From: Candidatus Bathyarchaeia archaeon
GTDB lineage: Archaea > Thermoproteota > Bathyarchaeia > Bathyarchaeales > Bathycorpusculaceae
Length of the DNA stretch: 64,000 bases
NCBI GenBank assembly: GCA_049969855.1
Contig: JBMFOB010000001.1
Span: forward strand, 69,906 to 133,905
Direction: 5' to 3'
The position numbers and the translations under genes are program-made. The notes under the pieces were generated by a model. That model did not search any database. It was not told the origin of the DNA and was given only the letters and a program-made list of their open reading frames with translations. This document shows, one piece after another, positions 18,167 through 28,188 of this stretch; positions within the stretch are counted from its first letter, which is position 1; each line of letters starts with the position of its first letter.

Positions 18167-18763
18167 GTGTTAGAATTGAAAATGCTAATTATAATAGGTA
18201 TAGACCTAGCCGGAAGCTCAAAAAATCCAACAGGATGGGCTTTATGGAAAAATAAAACAGTAAAGACAAAATTAGTTTATACAAACAAGGAAATCATAGA
18301 GAGCGTTGTAACCGATAAGCCCTCTATAATTGCAATAGATGCCCCCTTAAGGCTTCCAAAAAAGGGGATTTTAAGAAGCGTCGATAAAGAAATGATAAAG
18401 AGGGGGTATAGAGTTTTTCCGCCAACTCTTCCAGCAATGAAAAAGCTGACATTACGGGCTATAAGAATAAACAAGTTAATAGTGGAGAAGGGATACAAGA
18501 CAATAGAAGTGCATCCGACATCAACGCGGAAAGCCTTGGACATGCCATTAAAAGATTGGGGAAAAATTCAAACACTCTTAAAGGATATAGGATTGAAAGG
18601 AGACATTGAAACACCCCATTTAACGCCTCACGAAATAGACGCCGTAACCGCGGCTCTAACTGCATACCTTCAAATACAAAATCAAACAGAATCCATTGGT
18701 GATGAGGAAGAAGGCTACATAATCGTCCCTAAAAGGTTGAATTGGAGAACCCTCAAAATATGA
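18167..18763 (+). CDS. DUF429 family predicted RNase H-fold nuclease
   Basis: GIDLAG, AIDAPL, EVHP, HEIDAVTAA; ATGA overlap with DP1; start may be 18182. Confidence 0.85.
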   Translation: MLELKMLIIIGIDLAGSSKNPTGWALWKNKTVKTKLVYTNKEIIESVVTDKPSIIAIDAPLRLPKKGILRSVDKEMIKRGYRVFPPTLPAMKKLTLRAIRINKLIVEKGYKTIEVHPTSTRKALDMPLKDWGKIQTLLKDIGLKGDIETPHLTPHEIDAVTAALTAYLQIQNQTESIGDEEEGYIIVPKRLNWRTLKI

Positions 18764-20313
18764 GCCAAAATGACAAGTTGCATAAAGCTGTGGAATTAAC
18801 GATTGAGGCAGGCTACCAACTCGACAAGGAAGCCTTCGAATTCCTAAGCACTGTAGCAGAAACAGAAGACCCAACAGAAATCATAAACAAAGCTATACGA
18901 AAAATAGAGACTCTAAGGGAGAAACCATTATTCATCGACAAAAACCTTCTGGAACAACTGATAAAGGAACAGAAGCCGCCAGAAGAAACCTTTCCACAGC
19001 AATTAGAACCATCGCAAACATTACCAGAAAACCTGCCAATTCTTGGGAAAGGAAAATTCCACTCTTTCGCAAAAGACATTGAGGCACGTATCAAGGTTAT
19101 TGACAATCCAGCGGAAAGACTAAGCTCAGGTGGAACAATTGAGGACTATCTGGAATATTTCCGGGACAGATTTAAGCGTATAGAAAAATTGTTAAGACAG
19201 CGAATGGATGTTAAAAGCGCCGCTTCCATTATAGACGCATTAAAATCTCCTGCAAACACACGTTTGAAAGTAATTGGCATGATAACGGAAAAGAGGGAAG
19301 CAAAACAAAAAATCCTGTTAACAGTGGAAGATTTAAGTGCAAACGTTACAATGTTAGTGCCTCAAAACGCATCAGAAGAAGTTCTAAAGAAGGCACGATG
19401 CCTCCTCCTTGACCAAGTTGTCTGCTTAAGCGTTGTAAAGACAAGAAGCAACCTTTTAGTTGTTGAAGATATAATCTTACCCGACATAGCGCAAAGAACT
19501 CCTCATAAAGCGCCGATTCCAGTTTACGCTGTGCTTACATCTGACATGCATGTGGGCAGCACAAAATTCCAAAGAGAAGCGTTTAACCGTTTCTTGTTAT
19601 GGCTTAACGGCAAATATGGAAACGAAAAAATGAGGGAAATAGCGAGTCATGTCAAATATGTTTTAGTGGCAGGTGACATTGTAGACGGCATAGGAATTTA
19701 TCCAAACCAGGTGAAAGAGCTAGCAATAAAAGATGTTAATGAACAGTATAGGCTTGCTGGGAAATATTTTGAACAAATTCCAGACTATATAGAAGTGGCA
19801 ATCATTCCAGGAAATCATGATGCACCCAGAAAAGCCTTGCCCCAACCACCCATATCAAACACTTTTTTAGAAAAGCTGCAAGAAACACGAAGGTTCTATT
19901 CCCTTGGAAACCCATGTTTTCTCAGCCTTCACGATGTGGAAGTGTTACTATATCACGGGCGCAGTTTAGATGACATAATTCCCACAGTTCCCGACATGAA
20001 TTCTAATCAACCGGAAAAAGCAATGAAGCTAATGCTGCAAAGTCGCCACTTAGCACCAGTATACGGCGGAAAAACGCCGTTATCTCCTGAAAACAGAGAC
20101 TGCTTAGTTATAGAACGTGTTCCCGACATCTTTCATGCTGGTCACATACATGCATTAGGATATACAAATTATCGCGGAGTTTTAGTTGTAAACTCGGGCG
20201 GATGGCAAGAACAAACAGAATATATGAAAAGAATGGGATTTGTCCCAACACCGGGGAAAGTTCCAGTTGTAAACCTTCAAACATTAGAAGTTAACATCCT
20301 CTCCTTCTGTTAA
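18760..20313 (+). CDS. polB: DNA polymerase D small subunit DP1
   Basis: OB fold plus phosphoesterase motifs SDMHVGS, GDIVDG, PGNHD, YHG, HAGHIH. Confidence 0.95.
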   Translation: MSQNDKLHKAVELTIEAGYQLDKEAFEFLSTVAETEDPTEIINKAIRKIETLREKPLFIDKNLLEQLIKEQKPPEETFPQQLEPSQTLPENLPILGKGKFHSFAKDIEARIKVIDNPAERLSSGGTIEDYLEYFRDRFKRIEKLLRQRMDVKSAASIIDALKSPANTRLKVIGMITEKREAKQKILLTVEDLSANVTMLVPQNASEEVLKKARCLLLDQVVCLSVVKTRSNLLVVEDIILPDIAQRTPHKAPIPVYAVLTSDMHVGSTKFQREAFNRFLLWLNGKYGNEKMREIASHVKYVLVAGDIVDGIGIYPNQVKELAIKDVNEQYRLAGKYFEQIPDYIEVAIIPGNHDAPRKALPQPPISNTFLEKLQETRRFYSLGNPCFLSLHDVEVLLYHGRSLDDIIPTVPDMNSNQPEKAMKLMLQSRHLAPVYGGKTPLSPENRDCLVIERVPDIFHAGHIHALGYTNYRGVLVVNSGGWQEQTEYMKRMGFVPTPGKVPVVNLQTLEVNILSFC

Positions 20314-20867
20314 GATAAACCACGTGCAATCAATCGCGCAGCCCGAATGGGTTCTGGAACTCTGCCACAAAAACACAAAGCCTGAATCATATTAGAAGCC
20401 CATTTAACGCTTGCACCCACTATTTCTACATATAATGGTGGTTCGCCGCTTCGAGTAATAATTTTGTGAATTGGGCCTAACTTTTGAAACACTTCCCAGC
20501 GCATTTCCCAGTCTTCAAAATGTTTTTTGAGGGCTTGCTTCACCGTTCGGTTATCAGGTTTTGTTCGGGATATTATGATAACTGGCTTTTTGAATTTTTC
20601 ATAAATTATTGTTGGATTGATGAGGTTAAAACCCGCAAAGGATACTCCAGCAAGCATAATAGCAGTAAACTCCCATGCTTTTAGGACCTCGGCGAGTTTT
20701 TCCGTCGCATCTAACCCATCAACAGTTATTTTTACGACTTTCACGTTTTCAATGCTGGCTTCTCTGAACAAAACTGCGGCAAGAAGTGCCTCTCGCGTTA
20801 TGCCTTTCTGGAAACTTCCATCTTCAACTCCTACTGTTAGCATGCTTTGAAAGGCTTTTTGCTTCAT
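20310..20867 (-). CDS. DUF99 family (endonuclease V-like) protein
   Basis: GVEDGSF, ITVDGLDAT, GVSFAGFN, VPEPIRAARLIA; overlaps the cdc6 3' end; start uncertain (20843-20897). Confidence 0.85.
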   Translation of the reverse strand: MKQKAFQSMLTVGVEDGSFQKGITREALLAAVLFREASIENVKVVKITVDGLDATEKLAEVLKAWEFTAIMLAGVSFAGFNLINPTIIYEKFKKPVIIISRTKPDNRTVKQALKKHFEDWEMRWEVFQKLGPIHKIITRSGEPPLYVEIVGASVKWASNMIQALCFCGRVPEPIRAARLIARGLS

Positions 20868-22068
20868 ATTCCACCAGACGCCCAAGCCTATTGTCACTAG
20901 CGAAGACGTCTCTAATAAGAGTGCGAGCTATTTCCAGCCTAATTTTTTTCGTTCTTCCATATCTTCCCATGCTTATAACCTTAGCATTTAACAATCCCAT
21001 CGAATCCAGCTCATTCACCAATGTGCTTAACCGACGCTGCGTTAAAGGTGTAACACTTAACTCCCCGCAAAGTTCAGCATAAACGTCATATATGTCGCCT
21101 GTGATGGCACTGTGAACATTCGCCCTATTCAAGTGATACACACTTAAAATCACAAGTTTTGAATGCAAGGTTAAATTTCTAAGAGCCTCAACAACACGGT
21201 TGTGTTCAATGTGTTTTTCAGCCTCTCGGACATGTTCTTCAGTCACAACACTTGCATCATTGCGCTCTGCAACCTCGCCAGCAACACGCAACAAATCCAA
21301 AGCCCGTCTTGCATCTCCATGTTCTGCAGCCGCCAAAGCAGCGCATAAACCCAAAGCAGCTTCAGACAAAGCCCCATCACAAAATGCCAATCGCGCCCGT
21401 TCCAACAGTATGTTGCCCAATTCACTTGCGTCGTAAGGCCTAAAAACAATTTCTTCCTCGCTGAGGGAGCTGAAAACACGTGGGTCAAGAAATTCCTTCA
21501 GCCGCAGGTCATTTGATATGCCCACTAGGGATACTTTGCTTTTGCATAAATTCTCATTTATTCTTGTCAATTCGTAAAGAAGCCGGTCTCCACGCGCTTT
21601 AACTAACGCGTCAATTTCATCTAAAACAACAATAAAAACAATTTTTAAAACATCCAAACCTGTTCTGAATCTATCAAAAACTTCGCCAACAGATAGCCCT
21701 GTGAAGGGAACATATACGCCTATGTTCTGGCATAAATTTGAAAAAACGCGATATTCAGACCCCGCCATGCGACAGTTCACATAGCAAAATCTTACAGGTG
21801 CATTAAACTCCTTTGCTTTGGCCTCAAGATGGCTTAAAACATATTTTGTCACTGCTGTTTTGCCTGTTCCAGTTTTTCCATATATAAAAACGTTAGAGCC
21901 TCTAGAACCTTTCAAAGCTGGGGCTACTGTCTCCCCTAGTTGTCTAATCTGTTCTTCTCGATGGGGCAGCTTCTCAGGTAAATAATCATGTCGTAATACT
22001 TCCCTATCTTTGAAGATTTTATTATTGTAAACGAATTTCTTGAATACTTCGTCAAGGATGTGGTTCAC
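20824..22068 (-). CDS. cdc6: Orc1/Cdc6 replication initiator
   Basis: YLPEKLPHRE, GKTGTGKT, VLDEID, HGDAR, C-terminal wHTH with GRYGRT. Confidence 0.96.
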   Translation of the reverse strand: MNHILDEVFKKFVYNNKIFKDREVLRHDYLPEKLPHREEQIRQLGETVAPALKGSRGSNVFIYGKTGTGKTAVTKYVLSHLEAKAKEFNAPVRFCYVNCRMAGSEYRVFSNLCQNIGVYVPFTGLSVGEVFDRFRTGLDVLKIVFIVVLDEIDALVKARGDRLLYELTRINENLCKSKVSLVGISNDLRLKEFLDPRVFSSLSEEEIVFRPYDASELGNILLERARLAFCDGALSEAALGLCAALAAAEHGDARRALDLLRVAGEVAERNDASVVTEEHVREAEKHIEHNRVVEALRNLTLHSKLVILSVYHLNRANVHSAITGDIYDVYAELCGELSVTPLTQRRLSTLVNELDSMGLLNAKVISMGRYGRTKKIRLEIARTLIRDVFASDNRLGRLVEYEAKSLSKHANSRS

Positions 22069-22098
22069 GTTAATTCCTCAGCAATTTTTAGTGGTAAC

Positions 22099-22118
22099 AC
22101 CCCATTTTCTAGTAGAGA
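22099..22118 (-). promoter_or_regulatory. ORB1 (degenerate), next to cdc6 start
   Basis: Minus strand TCTCTACTAGAAAATGGGGT. Confidence 0.65.
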
Positions 22119-22214
22119 AATAAGCTCTGTCATACAAAAAACTAAAGGCATAACATAAAAATCCTAAAAGAAGAAGAATTTGCATCACTTATTATTCTAT
22201 TGAATGTGAGACGC

Positions 22215-22236
22215 ACCCCACAATTTCTTTTGGAAC
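22215..22236 (-). promoter_or_regulatory. ORB2
   Basis: Minus strand GTTCCAAAAGAAATTGTGGGGT, matching TTCCAnnGGAAA..GGGG. Confidence 0.8.
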
Positions 22237-22392
22237 TCTGCAAGGTAATAACAAATCCTTTCTGATTTCTGCTTTACAGAAATATACTCTGAAAGGTTAA
22301 AACCACCAAAGCTACTTTAATGTTTACTGTAAAAGATTTTTGACAATTAACTAAAAAATATGCAAAAGTAAAGTGTTTGAGATGAGCAGAAT

Positions 22393-22414
22393 CTTCCAAA
22401 GGAAATGAAGGGGT
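22393..22414 (+). promoter_or_regulatory. ORB3
   Basis: CTTCCAAAGGAAATGAAGGGGT. Confidence 0.85.
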
Positions 22415-22645
22415 GCCGCTACATGATAACTTTGATATAAACGGTAGCAATTGATTTTTCTTTTTATTTTTATTTTCTACCTGACCAATGTAGAAGTTCT
22501 AAATAGTTCTCCAATAAACAATTTGCTTCCTTCATTTTTGTTCACAATTTGTAAACACCTTGTGAAATTGACTTAACAAAGCCTCTTTTCCAACTCCGCT
22601 TTCCCTAATATTGACTTTTTCTTGTCTCTTTTCTGTAAAATAGCC

Positions 22646-22667
22646 ACCCCTTCTCTTCTACTGGAAA
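22646..22667 (-). promoter_or_regulatory. ORB4
   Basis: Minus strand TTTCCAGTAGAAGAGAAGGGGT; inverted relative to ORB3. Confidence 0.8.
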
Positions 22668-22866
22668 TAAGCATTGCTTTAGTTCTCGTTTTCCTTTTTC
22701 TTTTTAGAAGAAGTGTGAAGTCTGTAAAAACAAAAGCTTTAAAAATTCTCCTTATTTTCCTTTTTTCTACCCTTAATGCCAATTTTCTTTCCAGCATTTT
22801 TACCATAACAGCTATAACTTGTGAACTGTAAAATTGTGAAATACCTTAAGCAGGTGTACACCGCAG

Positions 22867-23298
22867 ATGCCCGCTAAAAAGATGCGTGTTGAACTGTTCG
22901 ATAGTGAAGGCAATAAATATACTGTGTCCTTTGAAGGGCAAATAACCAGAGAAAAAGCTCTTCGCTTATTGGACATGGTGGAACTTTTAGGCGGAGTATC
23001 TGCGGGTGAGGGAAATCCAGAAAGTAATAACCCAGCTGTCGCAAATCAACTTGATAAGTACAGCAAGGTTCGAATGATAATTCAGAAACATTTTCCGTTG
23101 GTTTGGTTTTCTTCACGGGATGTCCAACTGGTTTATGAGCAAGAGCTAAAGGAACCAATAAGCCTAAGCACTGTGGCAACATACCTTTACAGAATGGCGA
23201 GTAAGGGTATGCTTTCTAAAGCGGGGAATTCCAATCGTTTGAAATATAGATTTGCGCCAAGTTATCCGCAATTAGCACCTAAACAACAAATGCCATGA
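22867..23298 (+). CDS. Origin-adjacent hypothetical protein with C-terminal winged helix
   Basis: Small N-terminal alpha/beta domain, linker, then WFSSRDVQ...ISLSTVATYLYRMASKGML...KYRF wHTH pattern. Confidence 0.8.
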   Translation: MPAKKMRVELFDSEGNKYTVSFEGQITREKALRLLDMVELLGGVSAGEGNPESNNPAVANQLDKYSKVRMIIQKHFPLVWFSSRDVQLVYEQELKEPISLSTVATYLYRMASKGMLSKAGNSNRLKYRFAPSYPQLAPKQQMP

Positions 23299-23327
23299 TA
23301 AAATCTTAAACGCCATTTTTGCATGAT

Positions 23328-24047
23328 TTATAGGGCTTCGCTTTCCTTCTTTTTCAAAAGATTTTCCATTTCCTTCTTCACATTATACTTAAAAGGAATT
23401 TTGCTCGTATCCCTCTCCAAGTAACCCCCCTCATAAAGCTTCTTCATCAAACGAGCCGTATGTTCCCGGCTGAGTTTAATGCGATCTTTTATCTCAGGCG
23501 CAGTTTTAGGACCTTCTGAAGCCAACATTTCCAAGACGGACAATTCGGTTTCTGTGAGTGGGGCTAAGGCTTTCTCTCTTTTTATGGGTATTACCGCTTC
23601 GATTTTTGCCTCTGGAACCATGGAGAATTGACGTGTTTGTTCTTCCATTTCGGAAACTTTTGAAGCTAACTTTTCATGCGCTGTGGAAAGGGCACTTACT
23701 TTCTCGTCCACTTCACCAAGTTTTGCTGATATCCTCTCTCTATGCTCCAAAACTTCAGTAAGCTTTCCCTCTAAAGAATGCACTATTTTATGGGTTTCTT
23801 CCGCTTTGTCCAGAGCCTTTTCACTTTTTGAAGAAATTGCCTCGACTTTATAAGCAATTAACTCCGTCCTTTCCGCCTCCTGCCTTAACTGTCTATTAAA
23901 ACTCAAAACAATGTCACCGATTATTTCCTTACTCTTCTCGTATTCCCTTCTAACTTTTTGCAGTTGCCTATAATACTCAAAAGCGGCACAAGCGGTTACG
24001 ACAAGTAAACTCCCAGCAATAATCAAAACTTCATCCAAATGAAACAC
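23328..24047 (-). CDS. Membrane-anchored coiled-coil winged-helix protein
   Basis: N-terminal hydrophobic helix, ~110-aa heptad-rich region, C-terminal LTETELSVLEML...TAPEIK..LSREHTARLMKKLYEGGYLER wHTH. Confidence 0.82.
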   Translation of the reverse strand: MFHLDEVLIIAGSLLVVTACAAFEYYRQLQKVRREYEKSKEIIGDIVLSFNRQLRQEAERTELIAYKVEAISSKSEKALDKAEETHKIVHSLEGKLTEVLEHRERISAKLGEVDEKVSALSTAHEKLASKVSEMEEQTRQFSMVPEAKIEAVIPIKREKALAPLTETELSVLEMLASEGPKTAPEIKDRIKLSREHTARLMKKLYEGGYLERDTSKIPFKYNVKKEMENLLKKKESEAL

Positions 24048-24050
24048 CTC

Positions 24051-24323
24051 TGTGATTCACCTGTGATTACGTTTACTTTAAACACGTTACATCACACATC
24101 ACAATTCTAACATAGAAGATTTAAAGATTACGGTAAAAGCATGGCTTCTAAGGAACAATGACGTCACACGTCACAGCCACAAATATGCTTACGCTCAAAC
24201 TAGCAACATTGCCTGAAAAAGGTTACTTTTGAACTATTTTTGACTTTTCGCCTTATTTTTGCTCCAGATAGATAATGCATTTAATGCTTTTATTTAGGGT
24301 ATGATGTGATTTGTGACGTCACA
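24051..24323. repeat. TGTGA/TCACA repeat array
   Basis: Nine copies, at 24051, 24062, 24092, 24099, 24164, 24171, 24305, 24312 and 24319; includes the perfect palindrome TGTGACGTCACA (24312-24323). Confidence 0.8.
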
Positions 24324-24798
24324 CGATGCCTTCTGATGGGTTTGAAAGCTTTTTCAAGCTGTTTTCCAGCTCCTCTCTAACCATTTTTATAAGTTTTAGG
24401 TGTTCACCGAGGTCTTCGCTTTTGTTTGGTATGTTTTTGTATGCCTCCATAAAGTCGTGCAATTTGTTGGCTATTTCTAGGTACGGGTCAAGTGTCGTGT
24501 CTTCGAACACTCCTAAGTATCCTAAAAGCAGTATAGTGTATATTGATTTTATGACGTTTTCTTTTGCTTGTTTTAATGTTCTGTTAAAGGCTCCGCGGCT
24601 TATTTTTGCCTTTGATAACCGTAATCTGGCTTTTTCATCGTATTTTAGCGGTTTACCCGAAATATTTTCAGCCAATATGTCAATAAGCAATGTTTCAAGC
24701 TGAGTTTTTGTTAATTGACTATTTTTAGTAAGCATTTTTACAATAGGGTCATTTAATGAGCTTGTTAACCACACTTGGACGTTTTCTTTAAGCTTCAA
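24319..24798 (-). CDS. Hypothetical protein with Tfx/sigma-region-4-like HTH
   Basis: SQLTKTQLETL...ISRGAFNRTLKQAKENVIKSIYT resembles the Tfx HTH (by eye); TTG start after GGAG. Confidence 0.7.
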   Translation of the reverse strand: MKLKENVQVWLTSSLNDPIVKMLTKNSQLTKTQLETLLIDILAENISGKPLKYDEKARLRLSKAKISRGAFNRTLKQAKENVIKSIYTILLLGYLGVFEDTTLDPYLEIANKLHDFMEAYKNIPNKSEDLGEHLKLIKMVREELENSLKKLSNPSEGIV

Positions 24799-24935
24799 AC
24801 TTTTCTCTCCACGCAGCTTCTTAAATGTATACACTTTTGTATACGGGTCTCCTTTTAAAACTATCGAATATCATGACAAAAATCACGTTTTACCAACACA
24901 AACATTTTATGCTAAAGAGAACAGTGTAGGATGAG

Positions 24936-26123: not shown

Positions 26124-26972
26124 TTACAAGTTTTCTGCGTGTTTTTTTAGTTCATCGAAAAGTTCTGGGCGCAAATCCCTAAGTGTGGGAACAAAAGTTT
26201 CTATGGGTTTTATGTCCGCATAATCTACATCACACATCACAATGTGCTCCTCATCATATTTTGCTTGAGCTAAAACTTTTCCATTAGGTCCCACAAGTCT
26301 GCTTCCTCCCCAAAACTGTAACCCATCTTCTATGCCGACAAGGTTAACATAAGCCAAGAAAGCCGTGTTTTCTATAGCCCTTGCCACTGTTAACACTTCA
26401 AAAAATGCCTTTCTGACCGCTGGAGACGCAGAGATGCAAACTATCAATTGGGCCCCTTTTAATCGTGTCAGTCGGCTTACTTCTGGGAAAAATATATCAT
26501 AGCATATGATTAAGCCTATTTTTCCAATTTTTGTTTCAAATGCTGTTGCGTGATATCCTGCACGGAAATATCTCTTCTCTTCAAAGACGCTGTGAGTTGG
26601 AAGATACATCTTTCTATATTTCCCTATGAAACCCTCGGGACCTACGAGAACTGCTGTGTTATAAAGTGTAGCTTTGGTCTTTTCGCTCAATTCTGGCATG
26701 CCGAAAATGATGTAGGTGTTTGTTTTTCTGGCTATGTCTTCCATGGCTTTTACTGAAGGTCCAGGCATTGTCTCTGCTAACTCGTATATTTGATCTCTAA
26801 CTACATAGCCTGTCAGTGAAAGTTCTGGAAAAATTACAAGGTCTGCGCCTTGTTTTTTAGCTTTATTTGTGATTTTTTCCATTTTCTTTATGTTTTCTTT
26901 TTTGTCTCCGCGTTTGCAGCTGATCTGTGCTAGGGCAAGTTTAATTTTGTCTTTCATTTTTGCTGCTTCCAT
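26124..26972 (-). CDS. Carbon-nitrogen hydrolase (nitrilase superfamily)
   Basis: Catalytic E (FPEL), K (YRKMYL), C (ICYD). Confidence 0.9.
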   Translation of the reverse strand: MEAAKMKDKIKLALAQISCKRGDKKENIKKMEKITNKAKKQGADLVIFPELSLTGYVVRDQIYELAETMPGPSVKAMEDIARKTNTYIIFGMPELSEKTKATLYNTAVLVGPEGFIGKYRKMYLPTHSVFEEKRYFRAGYHATAFETKIGKIGLIICYDIFFPEVSRLTRLKGAQLIVCISASPAVRKAFFEVLTVARAIENTAFLAYVNLVGIEDGLQFWGGSRLVGPNGKVLAQAKYDEEHIVMCDVDYADIKPIETFVPTLRDLRPELFDELKKHAENL

Positions 26973-27837: not shown

Positions 27838-27921
27838 TACTTTTTATGGTTATAAGTGTATTTAAGGACAAAAATAAAATACTGGGGTGATGTAAGGTTT
27901 ACGGTATAGAAGGATTTGAAA

Positions 27922-28188
27922 ATGGGGCGAAGAAGGAGAAAAGTTGTTCGCATTCCTAAGAGACGATTACCTAAATTCTTCTCTTGTCCAAAATGTGGAA
28001 AAGAAGCGGTAAGAGTTGAAATTCTCCGCGAAGAAGGTCGCGCCATCGTGGGATGTGGCAGCTGCGGGTTAAAGGAAGAATTTAATGTTAAGCCAGCACA
28101 AAGCGAGATTGATGTTTACTGTTTGTTTACTGACAAACTTTATGGAGGTTCCAAAAAAGACGCAACGCCCAAAGTGCAAGAGTCTTAG
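27922..28188 (+). CDS. elf1: Transcription elongation factor Elf1
   Basis: MGRRRRK...[10 protein letters not shown]...CGSC...IDVY. Confidence 0.9.

Follow-up and report, generated by a model that had tools for sequence, protein, structure and literature searches.

Three putative DNA-binding genes and an array of TGTGA sites beside the predicted replication origin of a Bathyarchaeia archaeon

The DNA analysed in this work, referred to as the window, is a stretch of 64,000 nucleotides from a Candidatus Bathyarchaeia archaeon (GenBank assembly GCA_049969855.1, contig JBMFOB010000001.1, positions 69,906 to 133,905 of the forward strand); the assembly has a size of 1.28 Mb and a completeness of 93%. 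The window carries three genes for putative DNA-binding proteins, termed g1, g2 and g3, and an array of TGTGA/TCACA sites between g2 and g3. An earlier note, made from the sequence alone, had placed these genes directly against the origin of replication (oriC) and had counted nine sites in the gap; the three open reading frames, an adjoining Orc1/Cdc6 initiator gene with origin recognition boxes (ORBs), and all nine sites were confirmed. The array is read here, with about an even chance of being correct, as a private operator set of g2 that would be bound by g2 itself, making the gene autoregulated. The features concerned are as follows.

22867-23298, plus strand: g1, small winged helix-turn-helix (wHTH) protein, 143 aa
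23328-24047, minus strand: g2, predicted membrane anchor, coiled coil and wHTH domain, 239 aa
g2-g3 gap, 271 bp: holds the TGTGA/TCACA array
24051-24066, plus strand: O3, a pair of TGTGA sites with 11-bp spacing, within the g2 leader and adjoining the Shine-Dalgarno sequence
24092-24103, minus strand: O2, TGTGAtgTGTGA, covering the expected start of transcription, 17 bp past the TATA box of g2
24120-24133, minus strand: putative g2 promoter, TATA box TTTAAA (24120-24125) with the kept upstream block CCGTAATC
24159-24175, minus strand: O1, TGTGAcgTGTGAcgTCA, on the upstream side of the TATA box of g2; inverted repeat I9
24305-24323, plus strand: O4, TGTGAttTGTGAcgTCACA, about 130 bp upstream of O1; its palindrome spans the last codon and the stop of g3
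24319-24798, minus strand: g3, helical protein with a putative helix-turn-helix (HTH), 159 aa

The TGTGA array and its co-occurrence with g2

The nine sites were located at 24051, 24062, 24092, 24099, 24164, 24171, 24305, 24312 and 24319. Across the window the TGTGA word was not enriched (132 occurrences against 123.6 expected, with 132 reached in 19 of 100 shuffles); the array (24051-24323) is the maximum of the genome, holding 9 sites in 273 bp where about 0.41 are expected and the next best stretch has 5. A dimer with 7-bp spacing, TGTGAnnTGTGA, occurs four times in the assembly, three of them within the array, and a 12-mer palindrome, TGTGAnnTCACA, occurs in the genome as a single copy, in O4. 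Dimer and palindrome are thus nearly or fully confined to the array, and therefore no regulon is indicated in the rest of the assembly, which is 93% complete. One TGTGAnnTGTGA lies outside the array, at 26230 within a nitrilase-like gene, as part of a 17-nt stretch (26227-26243) identical to the O2 core (ACATCACACATCACAAT). Some relatives have this stretch, but the closest, L013 (loci are numbered with L and families with f), does not, and it is therefore probably a by-product of coding.

The sequence CCGTAATC-TTTAAA was read as a B recognition element followed by a TATA box, and the block atttaaagattaYggt is kept in most of 33 relatives. Because the sites flank the TATA box, the start region and the leader of g2, the array reads as a set of operators: its predicted geometry is that of operators around an archaeal promoter, not that of a free-standing repeat block, and the positions argue first for transcriptional autoregulation. 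The proposal in the earlier note that the array may be a centromere-like site does not fit this arrangement if the site is taken as free-standing, and no partition ATPase is encoded in the window. O4 was also considered as an RNA hairpin, which was rejected from the sequence, the 12-mer allowing just a 4-bp stem and copies being present in both orientations at untranscribed positions. As proposed, g2 would be a membrane-anchored dimer joined via its coiled coil and the most likely binder of the array; binding at O1-O3 would repress its own promoter and, g2 being placed in the membrane, binding of the array would also hold origin-proximal DNA at the cell envelope.

The binder was approached through the co-occurrence of genes and sites. 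Of 74 Bathyarchaeia loci, 60 have O4 as a palindrome (GTGAnnTCAC) at the stop of g3, namely 59 of the 62 with g2 and 1 of the 12 without it, while g3 was present in all 74 and g1 in many, with or without g2. The palindrome stays on the g3 stop in L054, L055, L060 and L061, where a HypF-like gene parts g3 from g2, and the g2-proximal 200 bp are without TGTGA in 6 of the 7 f21/f24 loci; because it is kept with g2 displaced while the g2-proximal 200 bp lack sites, O4 appears to be more than a part of the promoter. The predicted g2 recognition helix (SREHT[AS]RL[ML]KKL) is kept from Bathyarchaeia to Nitrosopumilaceae, as is the TGTGA array, whereas the g3 helix of Nitrosopumilaceae has GAYYRQVGQSRDK in place of GAFNRTLKQAKEN. 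Seven loci with a diverged g2 helix (EH[VIL]SR) have three sites or fewer after g3. This correlative pattern favours g2 as the binder of the array, and g1 as the binder of a second set of boxes (box B, below).

The HypF-like gene of L054, L055, L060 and L061 (f21, f24), named by eye from acylphosphatase, Zn-finger and YrdC-like stretches, is 2.4 kb long and convergent with g3, and its stop overlaps O4. TGTGA clusters of the f21/f24 loci were rejected as arrays; they lie in a HypF-like coding motif or in its remnant, which is decayed in L058 and L059.

Several observations weigh against g2 as the autoregulated binder. L099 combines 7 sites with a diverged g2 helix, and L086 and L087 have 2-3 sites despite a near-canonical helix. 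The palindrome is missing from the g3 stop in three Bathyarchaeia loci that do have g2 (L039, L052, L069), it is present in L072, whose fetched stretch shows no g2, and outside Bathyarchaeia the strict palindrome is on the g3 stop in 1 of 17 loci with g2. The genomes compared are related rather than independent, those without g2 amounting to about five families. Co-occurrence would fit equally well if g2 were the regulated target alone, with g3 or another factor binding, and the 7-bp direct repeats are unexplained by a dimeric wHTH protein, such proteins usually binding palindromes.

The predicted origin and the box-B cluster

The origin and the genes around the trio are listed here.

18742-20313: small subunit of PolD
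20310-20897: endonuclease dU
20824-22068, minus strand: Orc1/Cdc6 initiator gene (Pfam Cdc6_C, 92.7 bits; Cdc6_lid, 86.4 bits; AAA_22)
22069-22866: predicted oriC, the AT-rich gap of 798 bp between Cdc6 and g1 (GC 0.335)
22214-22235, 22394-22415 (inverted) and 22645-22666: three ORB-type elements in oriC, around an AT-rich stretch; inverted repeats I2 and I4
22541-22840: box-B cluster, TGTGAA/TTCACA at 22542, 22561, 22714, 22820 and 22835, plus TGTAAA variants
Beyond g3: metabolic genes, then an Elf1-like gene, then the large subunit of PolD from 29309

The ORB pattern CACCCC-N5-TTC-N4-GGAA occurs in three copies in the whole 1.28 Mb assembly, all at 22214-22666, and the cumulative GC skew has its minimum at 24-25 kb of the window; a single predicted origin in the Cdc6-g1 gap is well supported because the ORBs are confined to this gap and the skew minimum lies at 24-25 kb. 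Inverted ORB repeats around an AT-rich stretch, adjoining cdc6, are the arrangement by which an archaeal Orc1/Cdc6-dependent oriC is recognised, and the ORB blocks are kept in an alignment with 10 relatives.

Box B is interleaved with ORB3 and covers the g1 promoter together with the right half of oriC. It includes TTCACA-N13-TGTGAA at 22542-22566, and its boxes flank the g1 TATA box CTATAA (22812-22817). A stretch of 310 bp is the genome maximum both for TGTGAA (5 copies, next best 4) and for TGT[GA]AA (9 copies, next best 5, 0.49 expected). In the alignment with 10 relatives the boxes form kept blocks beside ORB3; TTCACC-N15-TTGTGAA is found around the g1 TATA box of relatives, and the g1 boxes persist in genomes without g2. 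The boxes become TGTTAAC in oriC of Nitrosopumilaceae, where the g1 helix LSTVSTYL is replaced by LSIISTYL, and all 4 GTTAAC sites of a 19.9 kb Nitrosopumilaceae locus are in the g1-Cdc6 gap, among the ORBs. Because it has a separate set of TGTGAA/TGTAAA boxes, on its own promoter and between the ORBs, g1 would be the better candidate for an accessory origin-binding factor.

The Elf1-like Zn-ribbon gene (27916-28188; Pfam 64.3 bits) precedes a gene labelled GGGPS, from reading the translation alone, and the gene for the large PolD subunit; these are kept together in most loci.

The three proteins and the distribution of their genes

A structure model of g1 (predicted local distance difference test score, 74.5) suggests that an N-terminal beta-hairpin/helix domain is joined by a linker to a C-terminal wHTH. 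Its Foldseek matches were wHTH regulators only, RosR being the best (E 5.6e-3), followed by Fur, MecI, PadR and the Cdc6 winged helix, with no match at E 1e-3 or better. Against Pfam Penicillinase_R, g1 scored 19 bits, below the cut-off of 22.6, and so falls outside the BlaI/MecI/CopY repressors by this measure; the model matches weakly in 22 of 24 g1 relatives, and the closest solved relative is 2k4b (E 0.018).

For g2, residues 164-223 scored above the Pfam gathering cut-offs of MarR (30.2 bits; cut-off 24.6) and TrmB (28.1; 25.6), giving a wHTH of MarR/TrmB type; g2 also scored above the cut-off of HTH_27 (26.1; 22.2). Matches to coiled coils cover residues 45-145. Over 19 residues at the N-terminus the hydropathy is 2.04, with values of 1.85-2.75 across all 22 aligned relatives, as predicted for a membrane anchor. 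The true start of g2 is probably a TTG at 24038, after the Shine-Dalgarno sequence GAGGTG. Homologues are annotated by NCBI as 'winged helix DNA-binding protein' or 'MarR family transcriptional regulator', as in Nitrosarchaeum koreense.

The earlier note had called g3 Tfx-like, a label that applies to g3 only by way of one bridging homologue. The window protein had no Pfam or NCBIfam match; the Tfx model TIGR00721 had no match at E <= 1 anywhere in the genome of the window, placing g3 outside the family by this test; and an hhalign comparison between a true Tfx protein and the g3 alignment gave a probability of 0.24%. The bridging homologue, from genome G155, lacks the HTH insertion of g3, aligns to the g3 family at 98.2% probability, and matches the Tfx model over positions 3-59 (the N-terminal HTH; E 1.8e-6, 27.4 bits, below the cut-off of 60.25) and Sigma70_r4 (E 4e-5, 23.5 bits, below the cut-off of 24.1). 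Foldseek of g3 against the PDB gave no match at E <= 0.001; wide VIA-align comparison gave Z of 7.2 or lower, confined to the C-terminal hairpin (residues 100-159) and at the level of generic coiled coils; and in the ESM Atlas, g3 led to unnamed Bathyarchaeota clusters and one 0.79 lead, a Hadarchaeota cluster with Sigma70_r4 in 14% of its members. The reading adopted is that g3 has a putative divergent HTH of sigma-70 region 4/Tfx type, with an insertion, and a distinct C-terminal helical hairpin, and is outside the Tfx family: its homologue from G155 matches both models, below their cut-offs, whereas g3 itself matches neither and differs in the HTH insertion and in its C-terminal domain. Invariant R, N, T and Q residues abound in the predicted recognition helix of g3.

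Synteny of the trio with Cdc6 was compared at the level of the order, the class and the phylum. Among close genomes (order level), g2 is single-copy in 35 of 41. Cdc6, g1, g2 and g3 were found together in 29 of 33 order-level loci, the remaining 4 being cut by contig ends, and the g2-g3 gap had 4-12 TGTGA sites in all 33, most of which keep the order O3, O2, TATA box, O1, O4. Synteny at this level says little, because the whole 20-kb region is collinear in the order. At class level, g3 was found in 93, g1 in 74 and g2 in 89 of 121 genomes, weak coiled-coil matches being included for g2; Cdc6 was within the fetched stretch (20 kb or less) in 28 of 40 loci, and 10 of the 40 had g1 and g3 but not g2 (families f14, f23, f25, f26 and f27). 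Another 8 of the 40 (L052, L054, L055, L058-L061 and L074, from f18, f21, f24 and f33) had g2-g3 beside the gene for the small PolD subunit without Cdc6 or g1. Beyond the class, the trio and Cdc6 are kept in 10 of 20 phylum-level loci, 3 of them from family f38, in which the order is PolD-large, GGGPS, g3, a TGTGA cluster (7-10 sites), g2, g1, oriC with ORBs, Cdc6, PolD-small. Loci related to f38 carry Nitrosopumilaceae names, including Nitrosarchaeum koreense; the array was present in 3 of 3 Nitrosopumilaceae loci examined, and a g2 homologue in 27 of 27 f38 (Nitrosopumilaceae) genomes and 62 of 81 of that class. Homologue searches returned 3339 proteins for g3 and 3685 for the g2 homologue of locus L091, the names given by NCBI to close g3 homologues including Bathyarchaeia and Bathycorpusculaceae.

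The trio is a real, origin-linked and uncharacterised module, because its synteny with Cdc6 holds and the layout with the array recurs in Nitrosopumilaceae. Across Bathyarchaeia, the TGTGA array and the box-B cluster are retained along with the three genes. The earlier note had called the genes uncharacterised, and a literature search, with supplements left aside, gave no description of these genes or motifs.

Variants of the layout were seen in several groups of loci. In L086-L088, L100 and L105 (f46, f51), g3 is followed directly, often with overlap, by a protein of 143-163 aa that has a wHTH and a membrane anchor but lacks a long coiled coil, and neither Cdc6 nor g1 is nearby; because these loci keep g3 and a short anchor-wHTH protein without Cdc6 and g1, the g3-g2 pair appears to be the most widespread core of the module. 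A small AbrB/SpoVT-like gene, read from the translation alone, lies between g2 and g1 in a Nitrosopumilaceae locus (L091:11065-11235). Downstream of g1 and co-directional with it, 14 of 33 order-level loci have two further genes before g2 is reached (L016:7554-10137), encoding a protein of 351 aa (no Pfam, NCBIfam, PADLOC or PDB sequence match) and a HerA-like ATPase of 519 aa. Decayed remnants of this pair were seen in L017; it is absent at 23299-23327 of the window, and tblastn gave no match at E <= 1e-3 in the genome of the window.

Rival readings and known systems

Known partition systems offer a way in which one array could do two things. In the parC/ParR system of plasmid R1 and in Sulfolobus SegAB, the operon for the DNA-binding protein has repeats on either side of its promoter, so one array could serve as operator and as anchor point. 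Nine candidate sites are likewise found upstream of g2, adjoining the gene of a predicted DNA-binding protein. These systems differ from the trio in having an NTPase partner: none is encoded in the window or beside the trio in the genome examined, AAA_31, SMC_N and ParB_N matching only other contigs, in agreement with the earlier note, which had seen no ParA/SegA ATPase, ParB or SMC gene in the window. In RacA-ram of Bacillus, a bacterial system, a DNA-binding domain and a membrane-binding element are combined, with sites near the origin. The predicted architecture of g2 has both elements in one protein, as in RacA and RicO; its candidate sites differ from theirs in being one cluster on its own promoter.

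A reading in which the purpose of g2 is membrane anchoring of origin-proximal DNA via the array, with autoregulation as a by-product, is considered unlikely. In its favour, the predicted membrane anchor is present in 22 of 22 aligned relatives, the candidate sites are gathered in one genome-unique cluster at about 1.4-1.7 kb from ORB3, linkage to oriC is retained in two classes, and a regulator with strong sites solely at its own gene has no evident output. RicO of Staphylococcus aureus is a bacterial precedent for such a tether, reported to combine a sequence-specific DNA-binding domain with a membrane-binding element and to have sites near the origin (10.64898/2026.03.06.710092). The likeness is one of architecture alone, RicO having a C-terminal amphipathic helix whereas g2 has a predicted N-terminal transmembrane segment and coiled coil. 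Against anchoring as the purpose of g2, the locus has no motor or partition ATPase, g2-g3 occurs without Cdc6 in the 8 class-level loci (four families) noted above, g2 was not found, or gave weak matches alone, in families f14, f20, f25, f26 and f27, and the g2 relatives in L090, L098 and L104 are without a hydrophobic anchor. Genes beside an origin can, moreover, have unrelated roles. The haloarchaeal OapABC/ArvABC set was first suspected of a replication role and is reported to drive vesicle formation (PMC10927574); like the trio it is a conserved origin-adjacent gene set, but its proteins, a GTPase and Zn-ribbon proteins, are unrelated in kind. The case of OapA is a caution against inferring function from origin adjacency.

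Binding of the TGTGA array by g3, which would then control g2 while the DNA-binding domain of g2 acts elsewhere, is likewise doubtful. It would suit four observations: in most loci of the phylum g3 immediately precedes g2 in the same orientation, O4 overlies the stop of g3, the predicted recognition helix abounds in invariant R, N, T and Q residues, and the homologue from G155 has an HTH of sigma-70 region 4 type; set against these, g3 persists in 12 fetched Bathyarchaeia loci without detected g2, 11 of which have no palindrome on the g3 stop, its helix diverges in Nitrosopumilaceae while the array remains, and its own promoter holds about 0 sites. Control of replication is a tentative possibility, in which g1, alone or with others, would bind the boxes between the ORBs and so modulate Orc1/Cdc6 binding or helicase loading. 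The box-B cluster is a genome maximum interleaved with ORB3, the GTTAAC sites of the Nitrosopumilaceae locus all lie in the g1-Cdc6 gap among the ORBs, and g1 stays beside Cdc6 in most loci holding both. As a precedent, UBP is reported to bind hundreds of sites across the Sulfolobus genome, with its ucm motif inside origins (PMC12141716), so that a non-initiator protein has its site in an archaeal origin, as box B beside ORB3 may be; box B differs in being a single cluster against the hundreds of UBP sites, and g1 and UBP are likened by site position alone. The boxes nearest g1, however, flank its TATA box, and because of this autoregulation alone could explain them; g1 was also not found, or gave one weak match, in families f18, f21, f24, f30 and f33, and therefore would not be essential to origin function across the class. 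Autoregulation of g2 through its own operators is retained as the preferred reading of the array. More speculative than any of these, and improbable as it stands, is that the trio forms an ancestral origin-management system of Bathyarchaeia and Nitrososphaeria, in which g2 pins origin-proximal DNA to the membrane by way of the TGTGA array, g1, placed between the ORBs, gates Orc1/Cdc6 or helicase loading, and g3 couples both; if true, replication and segregation would be linked in these lineages without any need for a motor of ParA or SegA type.

Regulation of origins and positioning of chromosomes in archaea are largely unknown outside Sulfolobus and haloarchaea. The trio is a compact, deeply kept set of three putative DNA-binding genes with two genome-unique site arrays around a single predicted origin, and its recurrence in ammonia-oxidising archaea, which can be grown, makes a role in origin control or anchoring testable; Nitrosarchaeum koreense, a family member carrying a g2 homologue, is presumably in culture. 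If an origin role were disproven, the trio would repeat the lesson of OapA that origin adjacency need not imply origin function; if proven, it would be a new class of archaeal origin-associated factor.

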